A stretch of 64,000 nucleotides of DNA from Escherichia coli. Lineage in GTDB: Bacteria > Pseudomonadota > Gammaproteobacteria > Enterobacterales > Enterobacteriaceae. Where the stretch lies: the NCBI RefSeq assembly GCF_044324785.1, contig NZ_CP172127.1; one strand, written 5' to 3'. This document shows, piece by piece, positions 23,825-24,977 of the stretch (the stretch's first letter is position 1; every line of letters begins with the position of its first letter). The notes under the pieces are model-generated. The model saw nothing but the letters and a program-made list of their open reading frames with translations. It searched no databases and was not told the DNA's origin. Made by a program: the position numbers and the translations under genes.

Positions 23825-24025
23825 ATGGCAATCCGAAAACGTTTTATTGCGGGGGCAAAATGCCCGGCCTGTCAGGCGCAGGATTCAATGGCGATGTGGC
23901 GCGAAAATAATATTGATATTGTTGAATGTGTTAAGTGCGGACATCAGATGCGAGAAGCAGACAAAGAAGCCCGCGATCACGTTCGCAAAGATGAGCAAGT
24001 GATCGGGATTTTTCATCCGGACTAG
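23825..24025 (+). CDS. yheV: small zinc-ribbon protein YheV
   Basis: 66 aa ORF with CPAC...CVKCGH cysteine pairs; 9 bp after the kefB stop. Confidence 0.9.
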   Translation: MAIRKRFIAGAKCPACQAQDSMAMWRENNIDIVECVKCGHQMREADKEARDHVRKDEQVIGIFHPD

Positions 24026-24119
24026 CGATATGCGCCGAGTTTTTTTAAGCTAGTGAGTACACGGCTGCAGAATTCCGCTACAATCTGCGCCACTATTCTT
24101 CCCATGCTCAGGAGATATC

Positions 24120-24710
24120 ATGAAAGTAGCAAAAGACCTGGTGGTCAGCCTGGCCTATCAGGTACGTACAGAAGACGGTGTGTTGGTTGATGAGTCTCCG
24201 GTGAGTGCGCCGCTGGACTACCTGCATGGTCACGGTTCCCTGATCTCTGGCCTGGAAACGGCGCTGGAAGGTCACGAAGTTGGCGACAAATTTGATGTCG
24301 CTGTTGGCGCGAACGACGCTTACGGTCAGTACGACGAAAACCTGGTGCAACGCGTTCCTAAAGACGTATTTATGGGCGTTGATGAACTGCAGGTAGGTAT
24401 GCGTTTCCTGGCTGAAACTGACCAGGGTCCGGTACCGGTTGAAATCACTGCGGTTGAAGACGATCACGTCGTGGTTGATGGTAACCACATGCTGGCCGGT
24501 CAGAACCTGAAATTCAACGTTGAAGTTGTGGCGATTCGCGAAGCGACTGAAGAAGAGCTGGCTCATGGCCACGTTCACGGTGCGCACGATCATCACCACG
24601 ATCACGACCACGACGGTTGCTGCGGTGGTCATGGCCACGATCACGGTCATGAACACGGTAGCGAAGGCTGCTGCGGCGGTAAAGGTAACGGCGGTTGCGG
24701 TTGCCACTAA
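24120..24710 (+). CDS. slyD: FKBP-type peptidyl-prolyl isomerase / metallochaperone SlyD
   Basis: 196 aa ORF with His/Cys/Gly-rich C-terminal tail (HGHVHGAHDHHHDHDHDGCCGGHGHDHGHEHGSEGCCGG). Confidence 0.97.
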   Translation: MKVAKDLVVSLAYQVRTEDGVLVDESPVSAPLDYLHGHGSLISGLETALEGHEVGDKFDVAVGANDAYGQYDENLVQRVPKDVFMGVDELQVGMRFLAETDQGPVPVEITAVEDDHVVVDGNHMLAGQNLKFNVEVVAIREATEEELAHGHVHGAHDHHHDHDHDGCCGGHGHDHGHEHGSEGCCGGKGNGGCGCH

Positions 24711-24724
24711 TACCGAAAAAGTGA

Positions 24725-24753
24725 CAAAAAAGCGGGGAATCCCCGCTTTTTTT
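24725..24753. terminator. bidirectional intrinsic terminator between convergent slyD and slyX
   Basis: A-run, gcgggg-aat-ccccgc stem-loop, T-run (aaaaaagcggggaatccccgcttttttt). Confidence 0.8.
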
Positions 24754-24758
24754 ACGCC

Positions 24759-24977
24759 TCAATAATGTGGCGGTGGCGTTTCTTCAGCCTGCGACGCGAT
24801 GTTCGACGGCTGGCTGGCTTTTAGCTTCTCGGTCAGCAGACGCAGATGATCGCGCAGTTTCGCCATCTCCATTTCATGAGCGGTCACCGTGACGTTCAGT
24901 TCTTCAATGGTGATTTCCTGAAAAGCCAGTCGGCTCTCCAGCTCTGCCAGGCGTGCTTCCAATGATAAATCCTGCAT
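24759..24977 (-). CDS. slyX: protein SlyX
   Basis: 72 aa [31 protein letters not shown], coiled-coil-like. Confidence 0.93.

Follow-up and report, generated by a model that had tools for sequence, protein, structure and literature searches.

The sequence analysed here is almost certainly the 3' end of E. coli slyD, which encodes the nickel-binding tail of the protein in short repeats that are probably prone to slippage, and the ORF found on the other strand is a frame −1 shadow of the codon bias of the gene. All positions refer to the window, i.e. the whole stretch of 64,000 nucleotides that was analysed. SlyD, its nickel-binding tail and frame −1 shadow ORFs are already known at textbook level; nothing described here is new in kind, and it matters little for biology. 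The main features are the following.

24120..24710, plus strand: slyD coding sequence, 196 codons and a TAA stop (ORF list, PDB 2KFW, Pfam, RefSeq)
24120..24563, plus strand: folded part of SlyD, the FKBP prolyl isomerase domain with the inserted IF chaperone domain, codons 1-148 (8G01/2K8I alignments)
24564..24707, plus strand: His/Gly/Cys/Asp-rich C-terminal metal-binding tail, residues 149-196 (composition and codon counts; metal binding from the literature)
24108..24707, minus strand: shadow ORF antisense to slyD and in its exact codon register, 199 codons from a GTG start (ORF list)

Identification of the slyD gene

The gene had been named slyD in the earlier note, and this identification was confirmed by the K-12 protein, Pfam, the RefSeq annotation and synteny. 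The encoded protein was identical to E. coli K-12 SlyD (PDB 2KFW) in 195 of 196 residues over the full length (E=1.8e-130), with zero amino-acid differences in codons 1-148. Pfam FKBP_C (PF00254) matched with E=1.2e-8 and 35.6 bits (cut-off 21.1), which identifies an FKBP-type PPIase. Residues 1-196 were aligned to 2KFW, 1-166 to 2K8I and 1-154 to 8G01, so the similarity runs from end to end and includes the IF domain.

The order kefB-yheV-slyD, convergent slyX and then fkpA was that of K-12 and of strain 118UI in the RefSeq annotation. It is kept in Salmonella, Citrobacter, Klebsiella, Serratia and Yersinia, which puts the gene at the orthologous position, and in the window the neighbours were matched by Pfam as DUF2387/YheV and SlyX. 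The 731-nt locus was found in 5,425 of 5,426 complete E. coli genomes, with 97.7-99.7% identity among the full-length matches listed and at least 95% in all records, and the only RefSeq features beneath this match were slyD and slyX. The identity to 5,425 genomes together with the synteny shows that the window is an E. coli-type chromosome segment. Judged by every property of SlyD that a sequence can reveal, the gene at 24120-24710 is slyD.

Directly upstream of slyD lies yheV (23825-24025), which encodes a 66-residue DUF2387 zinc-ribbon protein (CxxC...CxxC), a probable metal-binding protein according to the Pfam description. It adjoined slyD in seven of the seven genera examined.

Codon bias and the open antisense frame

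The antisense ORF was present at 24108-24707 on the minus strand exactly as the earlier note had placed it, and it covers the entire slyD gene. The origin that had been proposed for it, the repetitive sequence of the tail, was not upheld: the tail accounts for only 48 of the 199 codons, and the other ~150 lie outside it. An antisense stop in the frame −1 register would arise only from a sense TTA, CTA or TCA codon, and none of these occurs among the 196 codons of slyD, as expected for a shadow ORF in exact register. The antisense stops within slyD numbered 0 in frame −0, 18 in −1 and 5 in −2. Leucine was encoded by CTG in 13 of 14 cases and by TTG in one, and serine never by TCA. The folded part is kept free of the three codons by codon choice, with CTG for 13 of 14 leucines, and the tail by its amino-acid composition, having zero Leu and a single Ser (AGC).

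The same openness was observed in neighbours that are free of repeats. In strain 118UI, a fully open antisense frame was present in 16 of the 55 genes annotated within the 40 kb around slyD; these included tuf (394 codons), rplB (273), rpsC (233) and rplE (179); tuf, rplB, rpsC and 12 other open neighbours are repeat-free. In these 40 kb, TTA, CTA and TCA together made up 0.30% of the codons in the ribosomal and elongation factor genes vs 2.25% in the other genes, and the probability of finding none in 196 codons is 0.55 at the former rate and 0.012 at the latter. With a CAI of 0.72, calculated against the local ribosomal/EF gene set, slyD was in the range of the ribosomal proteins, ninth of the 55 genes and first among those without a function in translation. 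The antisense ORF is open because the strongly codon-biased slyD contains no TTA, CTA or TCA. Frame −1 shadow ORFs of codon-biased genes are classic (Mir et al. 2012, PMC3454372); the older reports, Merino 1994 and Silke 1997, are given here as Mir et al. 2012 (PMC3454372) cites them.

Evolution of the antisense frame

The nucleotide differences from slyD in codons 1-148 were then sorted by their effect on SlyD and on the antisense product.

Salmonella: 34 nt differences, 2 SlyD replacements, 32 antisense replacements
Citrobacter: 33 nt differences, 2 SlyD replacements, 31 antisense replacements
Klebsiella: 49 nt differences, 5 SlyD replacements, 43 antisense replacements
Serratia: 68 nt differences, 13 SlyD replacements, 55 antisense replacements
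Yersinia: 79 nt differences, 18 SlyD replacements, 57 antisense replacements and a stop at codon 22

None of the five genus comparisons over codons 1-148 showed purifying selection on the antisense product, as is expected of a shadow ORF. This bears on the alternative of a genuine overlapping gene at 24108-24707 whose product would be a hydrophobic protein rich in Val, Thr and Ala, a reading that we consider extremely improbable. The ORF has 199 codons and slightly exceeds slyD in length, and in E. coli O157:H7 antisense overlapping genes with a function have been reported (PMC9927249). The frame is also open in E. coli, Salmonella, Citrobacter, Klebsiella and Serratia, which taken alone could be read as conservation, but the codon bias explains it equally well and fully predicts the openness. 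The product evolves at a near-maximal rate, since 32 of the 34 Salmonella substitutions alter an antisense residue and 2 alter SlyD. Its identity to the Salmonella arizonae version was 75%, vs 98% for SlyD, and in Yersinia the frame is interrupted.

Signals for expression were looked for upstream of the antisense GTG. No Shine-Dalgarno-like or purine-rich motif was visible in the preceding TTTCGGTATTA, and a simple consensus scan of the minus strand upstream of the GTG found no sigma-70-like promoter site. A terminator was found instead.

24726..24752, strand not assigned: GC-rich hairpin between A and T runs, slyD/slyX terminator, sequence aaaaaagcggggaatccccgcttttttt (terminator scan, 12-pair stem on the minus strand)

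On the minus strand this strong terminator ends 19 nt upstream of the GTG; in these simple consensus scans the start signal and promoter expected of an overlapping gene were missing. The hairpin has 12 perfect pairs and stands between the convergent slyD and slyX; the scan reported it for the minus strand alone, and from its sequence it looks like a bidirectional intrinsic terminator.

The searches with the antisense product pointed in the same direction. A Pfam search gave zero matches, neither the antisense protein of the window nor that of K-12 was present as an exact match in a collection of 15 billion proteins, and RefSeq PGAP annotates only slyD at this place. A search for slyD together with antisense and overlapping genes found no paper that links them in the literature library covered, and slyD is unmentioned in the E. 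coli O157:H7 paper (PMC9927249). Read from its sequence, the antisense ORF encodes nothing and behaves in every respect as a non-coding frame −1 shadow ORF. The view of the earlier note that it is not a gene is thus supported by the 32 vs 2 changes in Salmonella, the Yersinia stop and the missing Pfam match.

Annotation of the shadow ORF in public genomes

The ORF has nevertheless been called as a protein, which could be taken in favour of an overlapping gene. The homology search returned 83 clusters of the slyD shadow ORF in the protein collection, and two deposited genomes carry it as a 'hypothetical protein' wholly over slyD, ESA_04392 in Cronobacter (CP000783.1) and SARI_04171 in Salmonella arizonae (CP000880.1).

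L021 701-1255 (CP000783.1): deposited shadow ORF, complete slyD overlap
L022 701-1354 (CP000880.1): deposited shadow ORF, complete slyD overlap

Relatives of the shadow ORF are labelled 'conserved exported hypothetical protein', 'FliL' or 'DUF2156 family' by other sources. The earlier warning that the ORF should not be annotated was apt, as public genomes contain such mis-calls, while RefSeq PGAP makes none. A gene caller that takes the longest ORF would choose the wrong strand here (199 vs 196 codons), and the slyD shadow ORF is useful as a negative control, both in testing annotation pipelines and where antisense overlapping genes are claimed.

Composition and repeats of the tail

Residues 149-196 of SlyD read HGHVHGAHDHHHDHDHDGCCGGHGHDHGHEHGSEGCCGGKGNGGCGCH. 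The tail sequence quoted in the earlier note was correct letter for letter, but its start at 24570 was two codons late, the tail proper beginning at 24564. These residues include 15 His and 6 Cys, begin with HGHVHG and end with GGCGCH, which is the His/Cys-rich tail with the HGHxH motif known from SlyD. Counted from residue 146 to 196, 41 of 51 residues were H (15), G (15), C (6) or D (5). Codons 147-196 with the stop contained CAC 11 times, GGT 10, TGC 6, GGC 5, CAT 4, GAT 3 and GAC 2 times. SlyD often turns up as a contaminant in His-tag (IMAC) purifications.

The repetition at the DNA level was modest, and the array below, with 88% match, was the only one returned by Tandem Repeats Finder.

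24585..24613, plus strand: weak tandem repeat with a 12-nt unit CACGATCACCAC, 2.4 copies, encoding HDHH/HDHD (Tandem Repeats Finder)
24596..24606, plus strand: 11-nt direct repeat CCACGATCACG, first copy (repeat listing and direct reading)
24635..24645, plus strand: 11-nt direct repeat CCACGATCACG, second copy, 39 nt downstream of the first (repeat listing and direct reading)

Within 24564-24707, four of the six frames were free of stops (+0, +1, −0 and −2). This is a contribution specific to the tail that the earlier note had left unsaid. The +1 frame of slyD is open in the tail past the stop codon to 24765 (region 24520-24765). At least 10 database clusters are SlyD proteins of 214 residues shifted into this +1 frame, including P0012 from a 5-Mb E. 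coli contig, P0047, P0072 and P0106; these may be sequencing errors or real frameshifts.

The SlyD tail is unstructured, rich in His, Cys, Asp and Glu, binds up to 7 Ni(II) and varies among SlyDs (PMC7055735). It reversibly inhibits the isomerase and is required for the maturation of [NiFe]-hydrogenase through HypB (PMC7055735). A His/Cys tail is typical of the gamma- and epsilon-proteobacteria and is absent from many other phyla (PMC11198818). The role in phiX174 E-mediated lysis and the Ni(II)/hydrogenase role both come from the literature on the K-12 protein (PMC7055735; PMC11198818). The tail studied here belongs to a protein that differs by G178S and is presumed to function as in K-12; being disordered and rich in His, Cys, Asp and Gly, it would provide the nickel-binding metallochaperone role of SlyD in [NiFe]-hydrogenase maturation described there.

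Variation of the tail between species

The metal-binding tail had been noted as variable between species, and this was borne out both by the homologues collected here and by the literature (PMC7055735). Among the best 120 database clusters, all from Enterobacterales, intact tails were 36-71 residues long. In about 100 Enterobacterales orthologues the tail started with a conserved L-A/E-HGHVHG-x-HDHHH and ended with GGCGCH; the middle was variable and consisted of HD, HG and HE runs with one to three GCCGG motifs. More distant homologues were represented by 114 near-full-length SlyD proteins from a library clustered at 50% identity. Their His/Cys-rich tails had 6-88 residues with a median of 16, of the short HGHVHGPGGHHH type, and the E. 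coli tail thus belongs to the long class.

In three sequences, P0039, P0059 and P0242, the N-terminal SlyD domains were followed by a run of His and then by a C-terminus resembling CobW_C (PF07683, matched on P0059). The three sequences are metagenomic, with P0039 and P0059 lying on short contigs, and probably represent chimeras that arose during assembly at His-codon repeats which slyD has in common with the genes of COG0523 metallochaperones.

Nucleotide polymorphism in the tail

The only amino-acid difference from K-12 SlyD was located in the tail.

24660..24662, plus strand: codon AGC, Ser178, sole amino-acid difference from K-12 SlyD, which has GGC, Gly (K-12 comparison)

The exact G178S protein (P0206) was present on 293 public contigs named E. 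coli, which makes it a genuine allele rather than a mistake in the sequence. The closest complete genome, 118UI, encodes the K-12 SlyD protein with Gly178. Over 24530-24730, no complete RefSeq E. coli genome was 100% identical, the best reaching 99.5%.

Eight of the 11 nucleotide differences from K-12 were at or beyond gene nucleotide 438, i.e. in the last 154 nt. In a non-random sample of 15 E. coli slyD alleles, 14 of 107 nt segregated in the tail vs 12 of 444 nt in the folded part, about 4 times as many (Fisher p=6e-5), one of the 14 tail sites probably being an artefact of indel alignment. At third positions, 10 of 35 sites segregated in the tail vs 12 of 148 in the folded part (p=0.002). 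A relaxed codon bias as the source of the tail SNP density was rejected, as the CAI was 0.81 in the tail and 0.69 in the folded part.

Length alleles of the tail in E. coli

The alignment of slyD alleles across strains, proposed in the earlier note as a check on tail length, showed that length variants do exist but are rare. A SlyD of 196 residues was encoded in at least 97.5% of 5,425 complete E. coli genomes. When the 201-nt tail query was run against the complete genomes and 60 records were sampled evenly down the ranking, 59 had the same 201-nt span; the exception was TX 265-1, of which only the 3' half matched, and which carries a 183-aa allele. The following alleles were found by targeted queries and each was verified by translation.

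183 aa: 39-bp deletion exactly between the two 11-nt repeats CCACGATCACG (O157:H7 TX 265-1; HCP4S3_I4)
192 aa: two different 12-bp deletions (NCTC9038; H1827/12 and 2013C-4830)
194 aa: 6-bp deletion (E2348/69; PEC422)
201 aa: 15-bp tandem duplication (MB10)
209 aa: reciprocal 39-bp duplication, bounded by the 11-nt repeat CCACGATCACG (ERP001)

In the allele alignments, the 6-, 12- and 15-bp in-frame indels of these other strains mapped to 24585..24613. Altered spacing was observed in 25 complete-genome records (15 of 192 aa, 8 of 194, 1 of 201 and 1 of 209), and the 183-aa allele in 2 additional records. A junction query ranked the 183-aa deletion and the normal alleles alike, so the coverage and identity bands were used instead. 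With the 201-nt tail query all possible indel alleles were bounded at about 135 records, and from the bands the non-196 alleles make up between 0.5 and 2.5% of the 5,425 complete genomes.

In the wider collection, the variant proteins were found on 3 contigs (209 aa), 103 (201), 174 (183), 330 (194), and 454 and 693 (192), some of them from Shigella boydii and S. dysenteriae. Further variants of 192 and 194 aa had indels elsewhere in the tail. In all these alleles the indels were multiples of three. Almost all lay within the central HD/GCCGG/HG zone; in P0208 it was instead the C-terminal GGCGCH end that was shorter by one Gly-Cys pair.

The junctions bounded by repeats suggest that replication slippage or short-homology recombination is behind the indels. 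The few codons that build the tail (CAC/CAT, GAT/GAC, GGT/GGC and TGC) would create short direct repeats in the DNA, and misalignment between these, by either route, would occasionally add or remove whole codons. Such misalignment would explain why the length and the middle of the tail differ between species and, rarely, between E. coli strains, with the HGHVHG start and the GGCGCH end conserved. Several length changes were shared by strains with different synonymous-SNP backgrounds, i.e. 183 aa in TX 265-1 and HCP4S3_I4, 194 aa in E2348/69 and PEC422, and 192 aa in H1827/12 and 2013C-4830, which points to independent origins or recombination.

We also considered whether the tail is a hypermutable contingency locus, in which slippage occurs at high frequency and selection tunes nickel storage, hydrogenase maturation or the sensitivity to the phiX174 lysis protein E. 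At least 10 distinct in-frame indel alleles in E. coli and Shigella, the recurrence of identical length changes (183, 194 and 192 aa) on different SNP backgrounds, the raised SNP density of the tail and the presence of lineage-wide alleles (192 aa in Shigella dysenteriae and S. boydii, 194 aa in EPEC E2348/69) would fit such a locus. It is unlikely, however, as the length variants amount to just 0.5-2.5% of the 5,425 complete genomes and the repeats are short and imperfect (2.4 x 12 nt and an 11-nt pair), far below known phase-variable tracts. In addition, five of the five length-variant alleles examined in complete RefSeq genomes were in frame and thus do not switch the gene on and off. In the wider protein collection frameshifted tail products are present, vs the in-frame alleles only of the complete RefSeq genomes. 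A phase-variable repeat was rejected on the 2.4 copies at 88% match, the variant frequency of 0.5-2.5% and the five examined alleles, all changed by multiples of 3 nt.

Occasional misalignment between short repeats remains our reading of the indels. It is unlikely that the 183-, 192-, 194-, 201- and 209-aa alleles are selected rather than products of neutral slippage and alter the Ni(II) stored or handed to HypB or the phiX174-type lysis. If this were true, the lineage-fixed alleles of 192 aa (Shigella dysenteriae and S. boydii) and 194 aa (EPEC E2348/69) would reflect adaptation. A phenotypic effect of the rare tail-length alleles is likewise improbable and of modest interest. The natural E. 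coli alleles with 13 fewer and 13 more tail residues are a ready-made series for relating tail length to Ni(II) stoichiometry.

Comparison with known systems

The closest system is K-12 SlyD itself (UniProt SLYD_ECOLI), with the same length of 196 residues, the same FKBP, IF and His/Cys tail parts and the same genomic context. Its structures are PDB 2KFW (full length), 2K8I (residues 1-165) and 8G01 (in the MraY-E-SlyD complex). The gene analysed here differs from K-12 slyD by the one substitution G178S (GGC to AGC) and 10 synonymous differences, 7 of these within the last 154 nt.

SlyD orthologues with a short tail or none, such as Thermus thermophilus SlyD (PDB 3CGM, 158 aa), share the FKBP/IF core, which aligns over residues 1-162, and the HGHxH motif that opens the tail is also conserved in the short-tail orthologues (PMC7055735). 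The His/Cys/Gly extension of roughly 40 residues is missing from them; the 114 distant representatives had a median tail of 16 aa, vs 50 here.

Hpn and Hpn-like of Helicobacter pylori and the tails of HypB and UreE are likewise of low complexity and rich in His; such sequences take up several Ni(II), and their length differs from strain to strain or from species to species (PMC7055735, PMC8704837). Their folds are unrelated to SlyD, where the His/Cys stretch is an appendix of a prolyl isomerase and chaperone, and the likeness drawn here is one of composition.

With the shadow ORFs of highly expressed bacterial genes, the slyD antisense ORF shares the codon register, the avoidance of TTA, CTA and TCA, the ribosomal-like codon bias and the unconstrained antisense product. 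It shows no essential difference from them; in about a quarter of its length, the amino acids that make up the tail add to the openness.
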